Source: an uncultured Pseudomonadota bacterium (GTDB lineage: Bacteria; Oederibacteriota; Muellerivitia; Muellerivitales; Muellerivitaceae). Taken from it: 64,000 nucleotides of DNA. The DNA is taken from contig CAVYRH010000011.1 of assembly GCA_963770835.1 (NCBI GenBank), forward strand, positions 96,001 to 160,000, given 5' to 3'. Below, piece by piece: positions 1 through 61,117 of this stretch. The notes below the pieces were generated by a model, which saw only the letters and a list, made by a program, of their open reading frames with translations, was not told the origin of the DNA and ran no database searches. Numbering within the stretch: position 1 is the first letter of the stretch; the number at the start of each line of letters is the position of its first letter. The translations under genes were made by a program, and so were the position numbers.

Positions 1-234
1 CGCGAGGCCTTTGACAACAGGCACTATGCCGAGCGGCCAAGGGGGAAGTCGAACCTGTAAAGCCGCCGGAGGAGAGGTTGTCGGAAAGCCGTATGATCGA
101 AAAGGTCACGTACGGTTTGACGAGGGGGCGCTGGAAACGAAGTGATGAGGGAACCTCGTTGGGGCACGGAACCGGAAACGGGGAAACAGATCAAGGAACC
201 CTCTGCACACCATCGCGCCAGTGCTCTACTCTGC
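1..234 (+). mobile_element. 3' part of ORF-less group II intron (domain IV remnant, DV, DVI), cut by window edge
   Basis: Matches 14491-14724 and 16200-16433; DV AAGCCGTATGATCGAAAAGGTCACGTACGGTTT; ends CTCTACTCTGC. Confidence 0.9.
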
Positions 235-7317: not shown

Positions 7318-7369
7318 TGTCCGCGGCGGGGAGCACCAAGCCCCCGGCTTGGTGCGGTGGCATTGGACA
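7318..7369 (+). repeat. 28-bp repeat variant with 24-bp hairpin insert
   Basis: TGTCCGCGGCG GGGA [GCACCAAGCCCCCGGCTTGGTGCG] GT GGCATTGGACA. Confidence 0.75.
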
Positions 7370-7419
7370 AGTTGAAATCCCATTCCCGCGCCGGCAATGA
7401 TGGTGTCCAAGCCTTTCAA

Positions 7420-7520
7420 GGGCAAATCTTAGCTATCCCCAATCGCCCTCCTTGGTTATAAAATACCGCAAGTTTTCGGGGTTCCCTGTGAGCTGTTGAC
7501 CGTCAACTGTGAACCGGTGT
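7420..7520 (+). promoter_or_regulatory. Copy 1 of triplicated recN-type leader, putative promoter
   Basis: GGCAAATCTTAGCTATCCC...TTGG(T/C)TATAAAATACCGCAAGTTTTCGGG shared with 17040 and 19838. Confidence 0.65.
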
Positions 7521-9785: not shown

Positions 9786-9813
9786 TGTCCGCGAAGGGGA
9801 CCCGGATTGGACA
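9786..9813 (+). repeat. 28-bp repeat
   Basis: TGTCCGCGAAG GGGACC CGGATTGGACA. Confidence 0.85.
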
Positions 9814-10555: not shown

Positions 10556-10583
10556 TGTCCATGAAGGGGACCCATCGTGGACA
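10556..10583 (+). repeat. 28-bp repeat
   Basis: TGTCCATGAAG GGGACC CATCGTGGACA. Confidence 0.88.
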
Positions 10584-11396: not shown

Positions 11397-11424
11397 TGTC
11401 CACGGCGGGGACCCGTCGTGGACA
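11397..11424 (+). repeat. 28-bp repeat, intron-occupied
   Basis: TGTCCACGGCG GGGACC CGTCGTGGACA followed by TC-GTGCC. Confidence 0.9.
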
Positions 11425-11426
11425 TC

Positions 11427-13405
11427 GTGCCAGGAACAAGGGTGTAGAAGCCAGCAGGTGAGGCTTGATATAAGCCGAGTCCTGACGGGGTAACCGCCTG
11501 AGGGCCCCGAAGTCAGCCTCCGTGGCAAGGTCGAGAGGCCTTGCCCGAAACGAGGTCATAAACCTTCGATTAGGAAGGGAACAATCTTACAGTCCGCAAC
11601 ATCAAGTGAATCCTGCCGCGTCGTGAAGAGTCCGCCGAAAGGCGTAAGAGGAGGCCGAGCCTCGTGTCCACGGGCGAAGGCAACAATCTCACCCTCAATA
11701 CAGGATGGGGTGGGGCGAATCCTCCGGCGTATAGGGAACGGAATGTGGGAAAGGCTGCTACATCAACCTGGGAGATCCTACCCGCCAAAAGACTTGCCGC
11801 TATAAGGCTAAAACCGAAAAGTGGTAAGGGTGGGAGGAAGTCGGAGGGGGCAGTAGTACCGATGAAGGGAAGACAACAAAACTTCCCGGAGGGAAGGGCC
11901 CCTGCTTCAACCAAGCAACCAAAAGAAGTGGAGCATGGAGAATGCCTGAAAAGGCTAACAACTCAGAAGACCAAGTGCGCCAATTCCAGAGGGAGCTATA
12001 TCGAGCGGCCAAGAGGAGCCCGAACCGACGCTTTCATGCGTTATACGACAAGCTCACCCGGTGGGACGTGCTTGTGGAGTCATGGAATCAGGTAAGGGCA
12101 AACCAAGGGCATGGTGGGGTGGATGGAAAGAGTTTGGAGGATATAGAGAAAGAGGGTGTAGGACTCTTTCTCCGGCAAATCCGGGAAGAACTCAGAGCGG
12201 GGACGTATCGGCCACAACCGGTCAAGCGGGTAGAAATACCGAAACCGGATGGCGGAAAGCGGCCACTTGGAATACCGGTTATTCGGGATCGTGTGGTACA
12301 AGCCGCCTGTCGTAAGATGGTCGAACCTATTTTTGAGGCAGATTTCCTGGAAGGTTCCTATGGCTTTCGGCCCAAGCGTTCAGCACATCAAGCTCACGAG
12401 GAAATCCTGAAATGGATAGATCGTGGGTGCAGATTTGTGGTGGATGGAGATATTCGAAAATATTTCGACTCCATTGACCATGCCAAGCTGATGGTGCTGA
12501 TGTGTCAAAGGATCAGTGACAAGAAGATTTTGGAACTCATCCAAAGGTGGCTCGAAGCGGGGGTATTGGCGGAAGGTAGGCTTATGCCCACCTCCGAAGG
12601 TACTCCTCAAGGTGGGGTGATTTCCCCATTACTTTCCAATATTTTCCTTCACCTGTTAGACAAGGTCTGGAACAAAAGATACAAGCAACTTGGAAAACTG
12701 GTGCGTTACGCTGACGATTTTGTGGTGTTATGTCCAACACAACAAAAGGCGGAAGAAAGTCTGAAGGTGCTCAAGAGATTACTTGGGCGGTTGGGGTTGG
12801 AAATGCACCCAGAAAAGACGAGGCTGGTGGAAATGGGACCAGGAAAGGATGGTTTTGATTTCCTTGGTTTCCATTACAGGATATGCCGACCCAATAAGAA
12901 GAGGGGAAAAGCATACATCAAAAGCTGGCCCAAGCGTAAATCCATGGAGAAGATCACTGAGAGGATAAAAGCGGTGACTTCGGAGAAATGGCGGCTGTCG
13001 CTTTCAATGGAAGAATTGGTAAAAACTCTGAATCCGATTTTGAGGGGTTGGGCCAATTATTTCAAAGTGGGGACAAGCTGGAAACAGTTTGATAAGGTGG
13101 ATTTATTTACATACCGAAGGCTATTGTTATTCCGAAGGCGAAAGCATCGTCAGAGGATAATGAATTGGTCGGGGGTCGAAGATGAATTCAAAAGGTTAGG
13201 CCTGTATCGGCTATCTAGACGTGCCATTGTTGCTTGAATGCCGCCGAAATAAAGGTTGTCGGAAAGCCGTATGATCGAAAAGGTCACGTACGGTTTGATG
13301 AGGGGGCACTGGAAACGTGGTTATGAGAGCCGGACTGAGGCCCAATTCGAAAGGGTTGGATTAGCCACCGTACTCTAATGCATACGCGCCAGTGCTCTAC
13401 TCTGC
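11427..13405 (+). mobile_element. Autonomous group II intron (true 5' end may be 11424)
   Basis: GTGCC start, RT ORF in DIV, DV with AGC triad near 13263-13296, long DVI with bulged A, ends CTCTACTCTGC. Confidence 0.93.
11942..13237 (+). CDS. ltrA: Group II intron reverse transcriptase/maturase, no endonuclease domain
   Basis: GVDG, IPKPDGGKRPLGIP..RDR, SYGFRP, GTPQGGVISPLL, YADD, FDFLGF, domain X LRGWANYF; no C-terminal HNH. Confidence 0.96.
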   Translation: MPEKANNSEDQVRQFQRELYRAAKRSPNRRFHALYDKLTRWDVLVESWNQVRANQGHGGVDGKSLEDIEKEGVGLFLRQIREELRAGTYRPQPVKRVEIPKPDGGKRPLGIPVIRDRVVQAACRKMVEPIFEADFLEGSYGFRPKRSAHQAHEEILKWIDRGCRFVVDGDIRKYFDSIDHAKLMVLMCQRISDKKILELIQRWLEAGVLAEGRLMPTSEGTPQGGVISPLLSNIFLHLLDKVWNKRYKQLGKLVRYADDFVVLCPTQQKAEESLKVLKRLLGRLGLEMHPEKTRLVEMGPGKDGFDFLGFHYRICRPNKKRGKAYIKSWPKRKSMEKITERIKAVTSEKWRLSLSMEELVKTLNPILRGWANYFKVGTSWKQFDKVDLFTYRRLLLFRRRKHRQRIMNWSGVEDEFKRLGLYRLSRRAIVA

Positions 13406-13462
13406 AAAGAAATAGGTAAAAGACGCACCACCCTTGAAGTGTTTAATTAAAGGCAACTCAAT

Positions 13463-13852
13463 ATGATCCTAAAATTCCGAACACCTCTTTTGATCACTTT
13501 TGCAATTATCACTGGTTACTTCTGGACCGTTCCAAATATTTTTTTCATGATTTTTAGCAATTTGCTACCGGTCCTGATTATTGCCTTTGGGGTAGTTCTT
13601 CTTTTTCGCGATATGTCCTGGAACCGACAAGCATTGCTCGTGGTTTTCTTTCTCGTCCTGGCTGAGTTCGCCAGAGATACCTTCGTTTGCCTTTTTACCA
13701 ATGGGTGGGCTCAAATGATAGCTAATGGGAATTGGAAGACTTATATCAGAATGTTTGGGGTTCAGGTTGTTGTTGGCCTTGTCGCATGGGGAACAGTGAA
13801 ATTGTTCTTAAAAGTCATTGAACACAAACGGTTTAAACCTAGTAGGCGATAA
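13463..13852 (+). CDS. Hypothetical membrane protein
   Basis: About 4 TM segments; lies between intron end and next repeat. Confidence 0.65.
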   Translation: MILKFRTPLLITFAIITGYFWTVPNIFFMIFSNLLPVLIIAFGVVLLFRDMSWNRQALLVVFFLVLAEFARDTFVCLFTNGWAQMIANGNWKTYIRMFGVQVVVGLVAWGTVKLFLKVIEHKRFKPSRR

Positions 13853-13896
13853 AACGGCTTTGATTTTTTCAAAGATTTAATCCGGTCGAAAAACCT

Positions 13897-13924
13897 TGTC
13901 CACGATGGGGACCCGTCGTGGACA
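13897..13924 (+). repeat. 28-bp repeat, intron-occupied
   Basis: TGTCCACGATG GGGACC CGTCGTGGACA. Confidence 0.9.
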
Positions 13925-13926
13925 TC

Positions 13927-14724
13927 GTGCCAGAGGAGGGTTTGCAGAGCCAGCAGGTGAGGGAGTAGGCCGATGAGGGTCAACCCAAGTCCTGACCAGG
14001 TAATCACCAGAGAGCCTGGAAGTCAGCCCCCGGCGTAGGATCGAGAGGTCCTGCCCGAAACGGGGTCATAAACCTCATTTAGTGAGGGAACAATCCAGCA
14101 GTCCGCAACATCAAGTGAATCCTGCCGCTTCGTGAATGGGACACCGAAAGGTGCAAGGGGATGCCGAGCCGCGTGTCTACTGGCGAAGGCCACGATCCCG
14201 CTGAAGAATCTGGTAGCAAGCGGGGCAAGTCCTCCGGAGTATGGGGAACGGAATGTTGGAAAGGCTATGCAAGCAAGCTGGGAGATCCTACCCGCCAAAA
14301 GACTTGCCGCTATAAGGCTAAAACCGAAAAGAGGCAAGGGTGGGAGGAAGTCGGAGGGGGTCACAGTACCGATGAAGGGGTGGACAACAAAACCACCCTG
14401 AGGGAAGGACCCCTGCTTCAACCATGTGTCTCAAAGAAGGTAGGCGCTGGAGCATGCCCCAAAAGGGCCAACAACTCTGTAGTACCAAAGCGCGAGGCCT
14501 TTGACAACAGGCACTATGCCGAGCGGCCAAGGGGGAAGTCGAACCTGTAAAGCCGCCGGAGGAGAGGTTGTCGGAAAGCCGTATGATCGAAAAGGTCACG
14601 TACGGTTTGACGAGGGGGCGCTGGAAACGAAGTGATGAGGGAACCTCGTTGGGGCACGGAACCGGAAACGGGGAAACAGATCAAGGAACCCTCTGCACAC
14701 CATCGCGCCAGTGCTCTACTCTGC
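13927..14724 (+). mobile_element. ORF-less group II intron, 798 nt (true 5' end may be 13924)
   Basis: Colinear with the autonomous intron over all domains; DIV reduced to a remnant of the RT 5' end; DV identical. Confidence 0.92.
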
Positions 14725-14728
14725 ATAA

Positions 14729-14755
14729 ATATGTACGGAATATTACCGTACATAT
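14729..14755. promoter_or_regulatory. Palindromic operator upstream of TA operon
   Basis: ATATGTACGG-N7-CCGTACATAT perfect inverted repeat. Confidence 0.65.
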
Positions 14756-14782
14756 GATATATTTAATGCGGAGGTAATAGCC

Positions 14783-15064
14783 ATGACGAAAGCTCTAAAA
14801 ACTAAGGAAGAACGCATCGAACTGAGGGTAAGGCCCCAGGATAAGCGGTTATTGGAAAAAGCCGCCCAGGCCCAGGGTTTGAGCCTGAGTTCCTATCTCG
14901 TGACGCGGTCCCTCCATGCGGCCCAGGAAGACGCGATCCCGGTTAAAACCTATGTTCCGCCTAAACGGGACCTGGACTTATTCCTAAGGCTTCTGGAAAA
15001 CCCTCCCGAGCCTAACGAAAAGCTTAAAGCGGCGGCACGGCGTTACCAAAAAGAGATATCCTAA
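14783..15064 (+). CDS. DUF1778 (RHH) antitoxin
   Basis: ERIELRV...KAAQ..GLSLSSY...LENPPEPNEKLK. Confidence 0.9.
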   Translation: MTKALKTKEERIELRVRPQDKRLLEKAAQAQGLSLSSYLVTRSLHAAQEDAIPVKTYVPPKRDLDLFLRLLENPPEPNEKLKAAARRYQKEIS

Positions 15065-15073
15065 TCTGCCGTT

Positions 15074-15589
15074 ATGACAGGCCAAAAATGGAAGTTTGTC
15101 CCTATCACGGAAAAACCGAATCTCGAAGCTTTTGACTGTGGCATTTCTGAACTCAATGATTATCTGAAAAAATACGCAGGCCAGAACCACCGCAAGGGGT
15201 TAGGAAGCACTTATGTCCTCATTCCCGTCGAAGGAGAACCCATCGCGGCTGGTTATCACACCTTGAGCATGGCTCAGGTGGAATTGCGTTCGTTGCCAGA
15301 ACCCCAACGTAAAAACCTCCCGAAGTATCCAATTCCCGCCGTTCGATTGGGACGCCTTGCCGTTGACTGCCAATGGCAAGGAACCGGATTGGGGGAGATG
15401 TTGCTGATGGATGCTATTCACCGGTCTGTTGCCGCCGTCCAATCGGTGGCCGCGAAGTATATGATCGTCGATGCCAAAAACAAAAAAGCTGAGGAATTTT
15501 ATTTACGTTACGGGTTTCAACCCTTTGAGGGCGGTTCACACTCATTAGTAGCGGCCATCGATACGTTAAAGGGACTTTTCACGAAATGA
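15074..15589 (+). CDS. GNAT toxin (TacT/AtaT-like)
   Basis: FDCG..ELNDYL, LGRLAVD..WQGTGLG..LL.DA, VDAKN..A..FY..YGF. Confidence 0.9.
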   Translation: MTGQKWKFVPITEKPNLEAFDCGISELNDYLKKYAGQNHRKGLGSTYVLIPVEGEPIAAGYHTLSMAQVELRSLPEPQRKNLPKYPIPAVRLGRLAVDCQWQGTGLGEMLLMDAIHRSVAAVQSVAAKYMIVDAKNKKAEEFYLRYGFQPFEGGSHSLVAAIDTLKGLFTK

Positions 15590-15605
15590 AACGAGTGGTT
15601 AAGGC

Positions 15606-15633
15606 TGTCCACGACGGGGACCCGTCGTGGACA
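15606..15633 (+). repeat. 28-bp repeat (perfect arms), intron-occupied
   Basis: TGTCCACGACG GGGACC CGTCGTGGACA. Confidence 0.92.
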
Positions 15634-15635
15634 TC

Positions 15636-16433
15636 GTGCCAGAGGAGGGTTTGCAGAGCCAGCAGGTGAGGGAGTAGGCCGATGAGGGTCAACCCAAGTC
15701 CTGACCAGGTAATCACCAGAGAGCCTGGAAGTCAGCCCCCGGCGTAGGATCGAGAGGTCCTGCCCGAAACGGGGTCATAAACCTCATTTAGTGAGGGAAC
15801 AATCCAGCAGTCCGCAACATCAAGTGAATCCTGCCGCTTCGTGAATGGGACACCGAAAGGTGCAAGGGGATGCCGAGCCGCGTGTCTACTGGCGAAGGCC
15901 ACGATCCCGCTGAAGAATCTGGTAGCAAGCGGGGCAAGTCCTCCGGAGTATGGGGAACGGAATGTTGGAAAGGCTATGCAAGCAAGCTGGGAGATCCTAC
16001 CCGCCAAAAGACTTGCCGCTATAAGGCTAAAACCGAAAAGAGGCAAGGGTGGGAGGAAGTCGGAGGGGGTCACAGTACCGATGAAGGGGTGGACAACAAA
16101 ACCACCCTGAGGGAAGGACCCCTGCTTCAACCATGTGTCTCAAAGAAGGTAGGCGCTGGAGCATGCCCCAAAAGGGCCAACAACTCTGTAGTACCAAAGC
16201 GCGAGGCCTTTGACAACAGGCACTATGCCGAGCGGCCAAGGGGGAAGTCGAACCTGTAAAGCCGCCGGAGGAGAGGTTGTCGGAAAGCCGTATGATCGAA
16301 AAGGTCACGTACGGTTTGACGAGGGGGCGCTGGAAACGAAGTGATGAGGGAACCTCGTTGGGGCACGGAACCGGAAACGGGGAAACAGATCAAGGAACCC
16401 TCTGCACACCATCGCGCCAGTGCTCTACTCTGC
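15636..16433 (+). mobile_element. ORF-less group II intron, 798 nt, second full copy
   Basis: Appears identical to 13927-14724 at offset 1709; ORF-track translations are identical. Confidence 0.92.
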
Positions 16434-16460
16434 AAATTCTAATAATAATTCTGTAAGGAG

Positions 16461-16895
16461 TTGCAAGTGAGTTCAACATGGTTCTTTGTCTTATTAACCA
16501 CGCTCTCTTTTGGATTCTTTAATATTTTCATTCGGGCCGCGGGTCCGAAAATTGGCGGGGTTTTGGGGCCGCTGGTTGTTGAGGGATTTGCGATGGCCGT
16601 TCTCTTACTTTTTTTCATTTGGCGAAAGTTTAATGGGTCGGTAGAGTCAGCAACGGCCATGGGGTTGACATTTTCAATGGCCGCCGGATTTTGCGCCGCC
16701 GCCGGTTCGATTGGGTTTTTTATCGTCTTTTCAAGGGGAGGCCAGCTTTCGGTGGCAGGCTCCTTTGTTTTAATCGGGAGCACCATGCTAACGATATTGG
16801 GTGGGTTTATCCTTTTTAAGGAACCGATCAACGCTCATCGTATAGTTGGGATCATTTTGGGACTTATCAGCCTTTACCTTTTGCGGGTGGAATAA
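16461..16895 (+). CDS. EamA/DMT family membrane protein
   Basis: About 5 TM; C-terminal LFKEPI...IVGIILG; AAGGAG just upstream, start may be GTG 16467. Confidence 0.75.
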   Translation: MQVSSTWFFVLLTTLSFGFFNIFIRAAGPKIGGVLGPLVVEGFAMAVLLLFFIWRKFNGSVESATAMGLTFSMAAGFCAAAGSIGFFIVFSRGGQLSVAGSFVLIGSTMLTILGGFILFKEPINAHRIVGIILGLISLYLLRVE

Positions 16896-16916
16896 GCAAA
16901 TCGACGGATTTGATAT

Positions 16917-16944
16917 TGTCCACGACGGGGAACCATTGTGGATA
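16917..16944 (+). repeat. 28-bp repeat
   Basis: TGTCCACGACG GGGAAC CATTGTGGATA, followed by GGTTGAAATCC as at 920 and 7369. Confidence 0.85.
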
Positions 16945-17013
16945 GGTTGAAATCCCTTTAATACCTGGCAGGGCCGTCCTTTGGGTTCCAACACCGCCAA
17001 ATTCTCCCAATCT

Positions 17014-17116
17014 ATTGATTGAATAGACGCTCTTAGCCCGGCAAATCTTAGCTATCCCCAATCGCCCGGCTTGGCTATAAAATACCGCAAGTTTTCGGGT
17101 TTTCCTGTCAGCTGTT
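17014..17116 (+). promoter_or_regulatory. Copy 2 of triplicated recN-type leader
   Basis: Near-identical to 19812-19911. Confidence 0.65.
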
Positions 17117-17141
17117 AACTTCCAACTTCGGAGTAAAAACT

Positions 17142-18522: not shown

Positions 18523-18777
18523 TTGAAATTCGTGAATATGCGCGACTTGCGCTTGAAAACCCCCTCGGTGATGAAGGGCGTGGAAAAAGGGGAAAAATAC
18601 ATCATTACGAACCATGGAAAGCCCCAGGCCGTCCTGCTGCACCTGACTGAGGACGAAATCGAGGATTTGGTTTATAAGCAACCCGAGTTCATGGACCAAA
18701 TAGAGGAGTCGAGGAAGGAATACGGAAAGAAAGGCGGGGTTCCGCTTTCGGAAGCCCGCAAGCGGCTGGGACTCTGA
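18523..18777 (+). CDS. Phd/YefM family antitoxin
   Basis: VNMRDLR...IITNHGKPQAVL. Confidence 0.85.
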   Translation: MKFVNMRDLRLKTPSVMKGVEKGEKYIITNHGKPQAVLLHLTEDEIEDLVYKQPEFMDQIEESRKEYGKKGGVPLSEARKRLGL

Positions 18778-18778
18778 C

Positions 18779-19051
18779 TTGTCCCTCCTCGTTGAGCTTT
18801 CACCCCGTGCCTTGAGGGATTTGAAGGCCTTTGAAAAAGCCGCGGCAGGGGAAATCCTGGACGGCCTGAAAATCCTCCAAACCCGCCCTTGGCCCGGCCC
18901 TCCCCGAGTAAAAAAACTAGAAGGTTATAAGAATCTTTATCGTTTGAGAATCGGGAATTACAGGTGCCTTTTCGAACCCACTGAAAAGGGAGTGGTTGTT
19001 TTGCGTGTCCTGGACCGAAAAGAACTGGAAAGAATCCTGAGGAATCTTTAA
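18779..19051 (+). CDS. RelE/ParE family toxin
   Basis: A.RDL, VKKLEG...YRLRIGNYR, V..R. Confidence 0.88.
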   Translation: MSLLVELSPRALRDLKAFEKAAAGEILDGLKILQTRPWPGPPRVKKLEGYKNLYRLRIGNYRCLFEPTEKGVVVLRVLDRKELERILRNL

Positions 19052-19364: not shown

Positions 19365-19820
19365 TTGAGTTTAGAACCTGGCCAACCCTACATGCTTGTC
19401 GGGGAAAATGACCCCGAGGCCCAAATGTCTCTGAAAAAAACGATGCAGCGGGCCGACGCACAGGACGAAATGGTTTTTGTGCGGAACGGAAAGGAAATCA
19501 TCGAGTTCCTCGACAAAGCCCTGTCCACACCCAAGACCCGCCACCGCCTGCCCTATTGCATCATCCTCAACTTGAATATGCCGCTTTTGAACGGGAAACA
19601 AACGCTCCAAATCCTGAAGGACCATCCCGAATTCAACGGTATCCAAGTCATCATTTTATCGGTCACAAAACCAAAATTTGACGTGGTTGCCTGTTACAAG
19701 CTGGGTGCCTATGCCTTTTTACAGAACCCTTCCGATCTCGGAAATTTGGTGCACATTGTTACAACCCTCCGCGAAGCGGTGCTCCCTAAACCAATTAACC
19801 GGCCCCCATCCATTGATTGA
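19365..19820 (+). CDS. Stand-alone receiver domain, degenerate phospho-site
   Basis: NGKE, IILNLNMP.LNG, VIILS; GGAGG RBS with TTG start. Confidence 0.75.
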   Translation: MSLEPGQPYMLVGENDPEAQMSLKKTMQRADAQDEMVFVRNGKEIIEFLDKALSTPKTRHRLPYCIILNLNMPLLNGKQTLQILKDHPEFNGIQVIILSVTKPKFDVVACYKLGAYAFLQNPSDLGNLVHIVTTLREAVLPKPINRPPSID

Positions 19821-19937
19821 ATAGGCGCCCCTGGCCGGGCAAATCTTAGCTATCCCAATCCGCCCGCCTTGGCTATAAAATACCGCAAGTTTTCGGGTTT
19901 CCCTGTCAGCCGTCAAGCGCCAACTGTGGACCGGTGT
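19812..19937 (+). promoter_or_regulatory. recN upstream leader (copy 3), putative promoter
   Basis: TTGGCTATAAAAT about 60 nt before recN ATG. Confidence 0.65.
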
Positions 19938-60052: not shown

Positions 60053-61117
60053 TTGAACCAAAAATCCAAATCCAATTCCCAAAGAACCCCACCAAACCTG
60101 CTGGAGCTAACGCCATACGACGGATTCCTGGCCCTTTGCAAATCTTCCCACACCAAAGAAAACTACCACCAGGACCTGCGAGTTCTTAAACAATTTCTAG
60201 ATCGTTCCAATATTCATGTTCCGGCGGACGCAAGGCCAGAACAGATGGTCCACTTTGCTGGTGCCTTGACCAAACCAGGTTTTACGCCAAGTGGCAAGCC
60301 CCGGGTTGCTTATTCCACCCGTTCTATGAAGCGCATCTTGGCGACGACACGGTCTTTCTACCGCTATTTGGCTTCCATCCAACATATTGCCACTGATCCT
60401 ACGGCCGTTTTCCACAACCTGGCCATTCGCAGTCCCCAACGCAATCCCCGCCCCTTACCGCCCAAGGACCGCGAAGCCCTGGTAAAAGGTCTCCAAACGG
60501 TCGATTTGGAGGGTCAAAAAGTCAGCTTGGTGGTCTTACTTGGTTATCATTGCGGCCTCCGGGTCTCTGAGATTGCCCATCTCAAAGTTCGGGATTTGGA
60601 CCCAGACCAAGGCCTCGTTACCGTCATCGGCAAAGGCGACAAGGAGCGAACGGTACCCATGACCGAGGCGTTGAAAGAAGTCCTAAAACATTACCTGGGC
60701 AATCGACCGGAAAATTCGGGAGTCCATCTTTTTCCAAGCCCCAGCACCACCAGTAAACCCATTCATGTGGATTATCTGGAAACATGGGTCAAAAAAGCCG
60801 CCCAATGGGCAAATCTTGAAAATCCAACCGAGCTGACCGTACACGTCCTTCGACATTCCTTTGGCACCCAATTGGCCGAATCAGGCGCCAGTGTGTATGA
60901 AATCCGGGATTTGATGGGTCATTCCAGCATCATGGTTAGCGAAAATTACGTAAAGCTGGCCTCCACCAAGGCCCGTTCGGCTCACAGGAAGGCCTTTGAG
61001 GATGGAACCAAGGTTCATGCCTTGAACCTGGGCAGTTTGTTTGGGATCGAATCGGTCTTAAAACGCTTCCGGGCCATAAACCGGAAAACTTTGCCCAATA
61101 ATTCTGATGGAGCTTAA
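60053..61117 (+). CDS. Tyrosine recombinase, XerC/XerD-like
   Basis: GLRVSE, GKGDKER, HVLRHSFGT, MGH, Y. Confidence 0.9.
   Translation: MNQKSKSNSQRTPPNLLELTPYDGFLALCKSSHTKENYHQDLRVLKQFLDRSNIHVPADARPEQMVHFAGALTKPGFTPSGKPRVAYSTRSMKRILATTRSFYRYLASIQHIATDPTAVFHNLAIRSPQRNPRPLPPKDREALVKGLQTVDLEGQKVSLVVLLGYHCGLRVSEIAHLKVRDLDPDQGLVTVIGKGDKERTVPMTEALKEVLKHYLGNRPENSGVHLFPSPSTTSKPIHVDYLETWVKKAAQWANLENPTELTVHVLRHSFGTQLAESGASVYEIRDLMGHSSIMVSENYVKLASTKARSAHRKAFEDGTKVHALNLGSLFGIESVLKRFRAINRKTLPNNSDGA

Follow-up and report, generated by a model that had tools for sequence, protein, structure and literature searches.

A group IIB intron lineage that very probably homes to the outer end of a palindromic gene-cassette junction in an uncultured soil bacterium

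We analysed a stretch of 64,000 nucleotides from an uncultured soil bacterium (the window; C11:96001-160000 of genome G000, 4.58 Mb), in which group II introns of one family, family A, lie in an array of gene cassettes separated by a 28-bp palindromic site. Family A is very probably an endonuclease-less IIB lineage with RNA of the IIE/IIF type that retrohomes by standard RNA–DNA pairing to the outer end of the cassette junction. In the mechanism we propose, a 7-nt exon-binding site 1 (EBS1) would pair with site positions 22–28, an EBS2 of 5–6 nt with positions ~13–20, and EBS3, a U, with the next base. The homing site would be the outer end of a junction that separates swappable gene cassettes and is present in ~90 copies per genome. 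Reverse splicing would occur just outside it, mostly on the cassette-sense strand and probably into the lagging-strand template, with priming on the replication fork. Site and genes would stay whole, the intron would become the first part of the downstream cassette, and copies without an open reading frame (ORF) would be mobilised in trans by a related reverse transcriptase (RT). This reading is carried by observed intron boundaries, target sequences, covariation, a strand bias and an empty allele; the biochemical steps, from splicing and RT binding through reverse splicing into DNA to retrohoming, fork priming and trans mobilisation, would follow established group II biology.

Three introns lie on the forward strand of the window, each directly after a 28-bp site, and all exceed the gathering score of the Rfam models for domain I (RF02003; 11472, 13981 and 15690) and domain V (RF00029; 84, 13262, 14574 and 16283, the first outside these three introns). 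The autonomous copy, A1 (11425..13405, 1981 nt), begins UCGUG, ends GC and follows the site at 11397..11424, whose positions 22–28 form its intron-binding site 1 (IBS1) and positions 13–18 its IBS2. Its RT/maturase ORF (11942..13237; 431 aa, YADD) matches TIGR04416 at 428 bits against a cut-off of 300, as well as RVT_1 and GIIM, and no endonuclease domain was detected in it. Domain V, with a 5-nt loop, and a long domain VI occupy 13262..13405. Two identical ORF-less introns of 800 nt, termed A0, follow at 13925..14724 and 15634..16433, behind sites at 13897..13924 and 15606..15633, the latter a perfect consensus. The 3' end of a fourth A0 copy, which carries IS110 and has its 5' end outside the window at a 28-bp site, occupies 1..234.

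The original prediction, made from the letters of this DNA, had put all the introns at one common position of the repeat. This holds for all three, but the boundary had been drawn one base too early: the final A of the complete site is the last base of the 5' exon (TGGACA|, not TGGAC|). Three independent results place it there. A metagenome contig (run X4) joins 11424 directly to 14725, skipping TC..GC with zero shared letters, so an empty allele with the same flanks exists in metagenome DNA. An off-site copy (C4:389639) interrupts a GH43 gene (PF04616, 309 bits), the reading frame of which is continuous only with the boundary after the last A. Lastly, in a copy from the related genome G027 the flank ends in G instead of A and the intron start is unchanged. 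An intron starting AUC or AGC, with the boundary before the last A, is ruled out by the copy flanks, the G027 copy and the X4 contig, although one G002 flank, from an 80%-identical relative with an A-rich run, fits this earlier boundary better. The ends are UCGUG...GC in the window copies rather than the canonical GUGYG...AY, and the first and penultimate bases covary in complete copies (U/G in 14/14, G/A in 4/4). Non-canonical ends are a known kind of deviation, as in UHB.I2 (PMC7923331; this and most other papers are cited here from partial texts).

Domain I contains the pairing elements expected of such a target. The loop TGTCCA at 11665–11670, and its counterparts TGTCTA at 14174 and 15883, lie where they had been reported, and folding of domain I had been proposed as the check that this loop is d3, the carrier of EBS1. 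The d3 region is covered by no Rfam model and was assigned from an alignment and folds. In the consensus fold of 17 domain-I sequences the loop sits in a bulged stem 3' of the d2 hairpin, within the stem closed by the coordination loop, which together with covariation identifies it as d3. The d3 stem-loop of A1 (11654..11681) contains delta (11664) followed by an EBS1 of 7 nt (11665–11671) that pairs with site positions 22–28; the predicted pairing of TGTCCA with TGGACA is therefore correct but one base short. EBS2 lies directly 5' of the d2 hairpin in two registers, and that of A1 (11628..11633) forms 5/6 pairs with site positions 13–18. The A0 copies have EBS2 at 14136–14140 and 15845–15849, EBS1 at 14174–14180 and 15883–15889, and, in the first of them, EBS3 at 14240. 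Covariation points to the C at 11617 as delta', the partner of the G at 11664: delta/delta' is G/C in 19/20 rows of the pairing alignment and U/A in one, the G034 relative. Position and the +1 base suggest that the U at 11730, in the coordination loop, is EBS3. It is a U in 20/20 rows and faces an A or G at +1 in 18/18 complete copies (A in 17/18, G in 1/18); a G041 relative has an apparent +1 C.

The pairings follow the targets. Over 20 rows, representing 15 distinct intron–flank pairs (one further locus has no d3 in range), EBS1 scored 93 with its own flanks and 73.3 when permuted, EBS2 scored 69 and 54.8, and 0/20000 permutations reached either observed value. Single-base changes agree: the EBS1 of G020 fits a class of sites with T at position 22 and that of G010 sites with A-22, while the EBS2 of an A2 copy on C2 fits T-19. 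Alpha–alpha' also covaries by eye in the alignment.

EBS1 and EBS2 thus pair with the 5' exon, and EBS3–IBS3 and delta–delta' are located in the coordination loop, as in IIB introns. Alignment and folds further show the RNA traits of classes IIE and IIF, namely alpha' at the tip of a stem-loop in DId3, an extra d3 bulge and a domain V loop of 5 nt; domain VI is long. The traits of IIC introns at attC sites are lacking, since EBS2 is present, EBS1 has 7 nt and there is no TTGT/T bottom-strand insertion. Because a 7-nt EBS1, EBS2, EBS3 and delta–delta' are present and covary with targets across relatives, family A is a IIB intron with IIE/IIF traits and not a IIC intron. In a quick RT tree, consulted for an affinity to class F (g1–g4) and holding four labelled references, none from classes C, E or CL, family A makes up a separate clade (support 98), and no labelled RT is a supported sister to it; its RT is at most 43% identical to the references compared.

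Genome G000 contains 20 copies of family A: 14 A0, one A1, three A2 and two A3. Sixteen of these follow a 28-bp site (13 match the matrix, two are 27-nt variants and one is truncated at the end of a contig), a placement that is not due to chance, with sites numbering ~94 in 4.58 Mb. Two A0 copies are found at sequences that resemble the right arm but have no left arm. One of these is the copy inside the GH43 gene, and here the expectation that the introns land between genes without disrupting them fails once. The two A3 copies, whose RT is 81% identical to that of A1, have changed EBS1 and EBS2 and another target. They (C2:234144 and C19:427462) follow a 15-nt motif present 12 times in the genome, several times in or near phage-type integrase genes, and one lies directly after a tRNA-like 3' end. 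Seven related genomes provide 28 copies with a visible 5' flank (one G002 copy without a visible 5' end is excluded), 26 of which, in six genomes, are at the site, three of them at degenerate versions. The other two (L082 and L083 in G004) sit at another palindrome, and their EBS changes match it; these family A relatives have an expanded domain IB and target the end of another long palindromic element. The specialisation for the array site that had been proposed is hence seen in G000 and six related genomes and is not clade-wide. Copies at sequences unrelated to the repeat, named beforehand as grounds for rejecting it, do occur, among the A3 and G004 members with their altered EBS1 and EBS2.

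The RTs of A1 and A2 differ by ~33%, and both branches target the site and include ORF-less forms (800, 798, 783, 782 and 773 nt). A0 is 91% like A2 and 79% like A1, and 9/10 uninterrupted A0 copies are identical. The same intron/site junction is found in five metagenome stretches. The 6 copies found of the IS110 element (G000 C2, C3, C11:94463, C20 and two on C26) all occupy one position within introns of family A, which falls in the first codons of the RT gene or of what remains of it. L073 (G027 C26:140564-141470) has the 5' halves of two family A copies facing one another across ~900 bp, each at a bottom-strand site. Nested introns are seen at L019 (G021) and L141 (G014), as an unrelated intron in a family A copy and as two introns of another family, B, in tandem.

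The target is a family-wide cassette junction with internal crossover, not attC. G000 has 89 sites before and 94 after removal of introns, in co-oriented arrays. Of 45 inter-site segments, 43 have their longest ORF on the site strand and two have no ORF. The site is found in 26/30 genomes of the family, in 1/1 of a sister family and in 0/29 others searched. Cassettes recur with different neighbours and are shuffled and duplicated in G000. The right arm is identical in 4/4 groups that share a downstream cassette and differs in 4/5 groups that share an upstream one; because the right arm travels with the downstream cassette, the crossover must lie inside the site, unlike in attC. There is no RYYYAAC/GTTRRRY attC core in the 28-bp matrix. 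A check for IntI covered 12 tyrosine recombinases, one scanned with NCBIfam (76.6 bits versus 265) and the other 11 by eye.

We then considered what makes a junction a target, using the 94 matrix sites obtained after in silico intron removal, 13 of which hold family A (p values are uncorrected for several tests). Occupancy is associated with a match to EBS2 (11/43 versus 2/51, p=0.005), with A at +1 (10/56 versus 1/36, p=0.045), with G at position 22 (13/73 versus 0/21, p=0.036) and with a more stable hairpin (11/49 versus 2/45, p=0.015). The last association, along with the near-perfect palindromy of the site, would suit recognition of the IIC-attC kind, where the RT–RNA particle depends on the site being folded into a hairpin of single-stranded DNA and EBS1 does no more than fix the register. 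We regard this as improbable, because a consensus right arm yields both the pairing and the hairpin, and hairpin energy is confounded with the right-arm match. The two are separated by the left arm, a perfect form of which is no predictor of occupancy (p=0.53; p=0.71 when only good right arms are considered), by the range of hairpin energies of occupied sites, from -14.4 to as little as -0.6 kcal/mol, and by the two A0 targets that have no left arm. EBS2, moreover, is present and covaries, and a hairpin stem would hide both IBS1 and IBS2. The hairpin as selector is thereby left unsupported, and the earlier view that the occupied sites are those with the best hairpins describes a mere correlate. 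Right-arm pairing, the +1 base and strand seem to explain occupancy, with the hairpin dispensable. Strand weighs more than the other correlates: in G000, 10/27 good top-strand targets are filled as against 0/47 good bottom-strand targets (p=1.2e-5), and all copies at sites (16/16) follow GACA in the cassette-sense orientation. The top strand probably serves as the lagging-strand template, because sites on a 2-Mb contig of G004 point away from dnaA on both sides, their polarity flipping at dnaA. The endonuclease-less intron RmInt1 likewise prefers to insert at the lagging-strand template (PMC8914252).

The number of copies might owe less to repeated homing than to cassette shuffling and duplication carrying along one old insertion, given that G000 cassettes undergo both and that an intron at the head of a cassette would travel with it. 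This is very improbable as the main source. The 3' flanks of the 18 complete G000 copies are all different, metagenome DNA holds an empty allele whose flanks are identical, and off-site copies obey the same pairing rules; the distinct downstream cassettes largely refute such an origin, although hitch-hiking may add some copies. A third possibility, which we find plausible yet less probable than real specialisation, is that EBS loops drift freely and that variants matching an abundant intergenic repeat expand, the site being no more than the sink that admits them most readily. In the quick tree, retargeted members fall within site-targeting branches or beside them as sisters (A3 is sister to A1, and the G004 member falls in the A2 branch), EBS divergence followed by waves of homing has been described in T. 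elongatus (PMC2882425), and three intron lineages converge on the site. Against this, site targeting persists across RTs as different as those of A1 and A2 and across seven genomes, and EBS changes track site variants. Drift of this kind concerns history rather than the mechanism of recognition, and is compatible with retrohoming by EBS pairing.

Several points weigh against retrohoming as we propose it. The permutation rows are kin, and their result leans on the retargeted outliers. IIE/IIF introns did not require EBS2 to splice in vitro (PMC3753933), and an RNA run (X13) gave four short contigs in which no spliced RNA was seen. Seventeen of the 27 good top-strand targets are empty, and in G027 5/13 copies are on the bottom strand. 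The assignment of replication polarity comes from one large G004 contig and one G000 contig, and transcription or selection could be the source of the strand bias instead. There is precedent for an RT acting in trans on ORF-less introns (PMC2882425), but all three A2 ORFs carry IS110 in their first codons, leaving the source RT for A0 uncertain.

The enzyme that acts at the junction is best sought among serine recombinases. The site has 13-GA-13 symmetry, with positions 12–15 conserved in 92–94/94 sites and position 16 in 79/94, and such symmetry fits the serine recombinase class. The best candidate, ahead of a Xer-like protein, is a short serine recombinase of 275 aa with Resolvase and Recombinase domains (L144:1471-2298; G000 C17), encoded directly downstream of an array, convergent on its end and adjoining an ArdC-like gene. 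It is ~50% identical to large serine recombinases of 510 aa. Short homologues have a site or half-site within ~1.5 kb in 5/5 cases, compared with 0/11 other serine recombinase loci; the gene is found in only 5/28 site-bearing genomes. The Xer-like gene (window 60053-61117) is single, divergent and below the XerC/XerD cut-offs. Its orthologue shares the range of the site (29/30 family genomes, 1/1 of the sister family), and its position in G004 is the point of convergence of the array polarities, probably close to the terminus. An 11-6-11 Xer site is a minority option, weakened by the lack of sites within 1.5 kb of the gene in 12 loci, by variation at spacer position 16 and by the spread of sites over the whole chromosome. 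Long site variants of ~52 nt, in which extra sequence lies between unchanged ends, occur at 869-920 and 7318-7369 in the window and at G000 C3:9957.

The same site is used by two further, unrelated intron lineages that the original prediction did not mention. One is family B, which is 1941 nt long and 35% identical to A1 and has a FADD motif, as in group g2 (PMC3552965). Of its 12 copies in G000, 10 lie at site position 11|12 and have a 7-nt EBS1 complementary to their target, and two lie elsewhere; it is also at the site in G002, G014, G020 and G021. Family C, 43% identical to A1, inserts at 19|20 and has two copies each in G004 and G014. B and C split the site and family A leaves it whole; four G000 sites hold both A0 and B. 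We tentatively entertain a wider scheme, for now a rather speculative one, in which the site is the crossover of an integron-like cassette system run by the truncated serine recombinase and partitioned by three unrelated intron lineages. B and C would presumably freeze junctions, A would be adapted to land one base outside, ride with the downstream cassette and keep the junction recombinable, and introns would thereby regulate cassette mobility.

The remaining features of the array are on the same strand. The intron A1 is followed by a cassette body (13406..13896) with a 129-aa ORF (13463-13852) without a Pfam match, which is missing together with both introns in one metagenome allele. The next body (14725..15605) encodes a TacA1-like antitoxin (14783-15064) and a GNAT protein (15074-15589), a toxin-antitoxin pair that forms a cassette (14783-15589), and the last (16434..16916) a 144-aa ORF (16461-16895) without a Pfam match. 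Empty sites are located at 9786..9813 (T at position 22 and +1 G, a poor target), at 10556..10583 (good right arm, +1 G) and at 16917..16944, a degenerate copy that closes the array. Just past the array is a Phd/ParE toxin-antitoxin pair (18523-19051). A 127-nt intergenic repeat family occurs at 7387-7513, 17006-17132 and 19804-19930, two copies following a site or long site variant, and AT-rich degenerate heptamer repeats (families D7, D15 and D16) are found at several intergenic and gene-start positions between 24893 and 46945. A promoter scan was uninformative (9 matches, 6.8 expected).

The recognition mechanism is ordinary and textbook; the target and the ecological niche appear to be new. 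A literature search for introns at this cassette junction found no description, most subscription papers lying outside the search. The introns point to a cassette system, so far undescribed, in an uncultured lineage and extend life at cassette junctions beyond class C and integrons, one 28-bp site having been reached at least three times by plain EBS reprogramming. The likeness to IIC-attC introns that had been drawn applies to the niche. S.ma.I2 and its relatives (PMC7923331, PMC4424553) also lack an endonuclease and insert at recombination sites of cassette arrays, yet they have no EBS2 and an EBS1 of 3–4 bp, rely on a hairpin and go into the bottom strand of attC, whereas family A has a 7-nt EBS1, an EBS2, mostly sense orientation, a target without an attC core and, judging by its copies, no need of a hairpin. 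The nearest published case is UHB.I2 (IIB1/CL1; PMC7923331), a IIB intron that, like family A, starts with U, has G as its penultimate base and lies in sense orientation directly behind a cassette site. The text on UHB.I2 describes one copy, from a metagenome, at a true attC and with exons of poor conservation; family A has dozens of copies, covarying EBS1, EBS2 and EBS3 and a non-attC site. Closest in RNA are class IIE/IIF introns such as Ge.ur.I1 and Pe.th.I2 (PMC3753933, PMC3552965), which share alpha' at the tip of the DId3 stem-loop, the extra d3 bulge, the 5-nt domain V loop, the long domain VI, a length of ~2 kb and the absence of an endonuclease domain; the available portions of these two papers contain no member that targets a multicopy cassette junction. 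PMC3753933, as far as its text was available, leaves open the role of EBS2 in homing, and the natural EBS1/EBS2 variants with matching sites are a ready test of whether an EBS2 of the IIE/IIF type serves it. TeI3/TeI4 of T. elongatus (PMC2882425) resemble family A in that ORF-less introns spread with an RT in trans and EBS divergence gives target families, but they are CL1 introns with an endonuclease, and instead of a cassette junction they target insertion sequences (ISs), other introns and intergenic sites. Like family A, RmInt1 (class D; PMC8914252) is an endonuclease-less IIB intron with a multicopy target and a preference for the lagging-strand template; its target is an IS, and the only class D RT compared shares 33% identity with that of family A. 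Among the bacterial intron targets listed in a review, namely homing sites, terminators and attC (PMC4424553), family A is of the homing-site type, aimed at a multicopy cassette junction.

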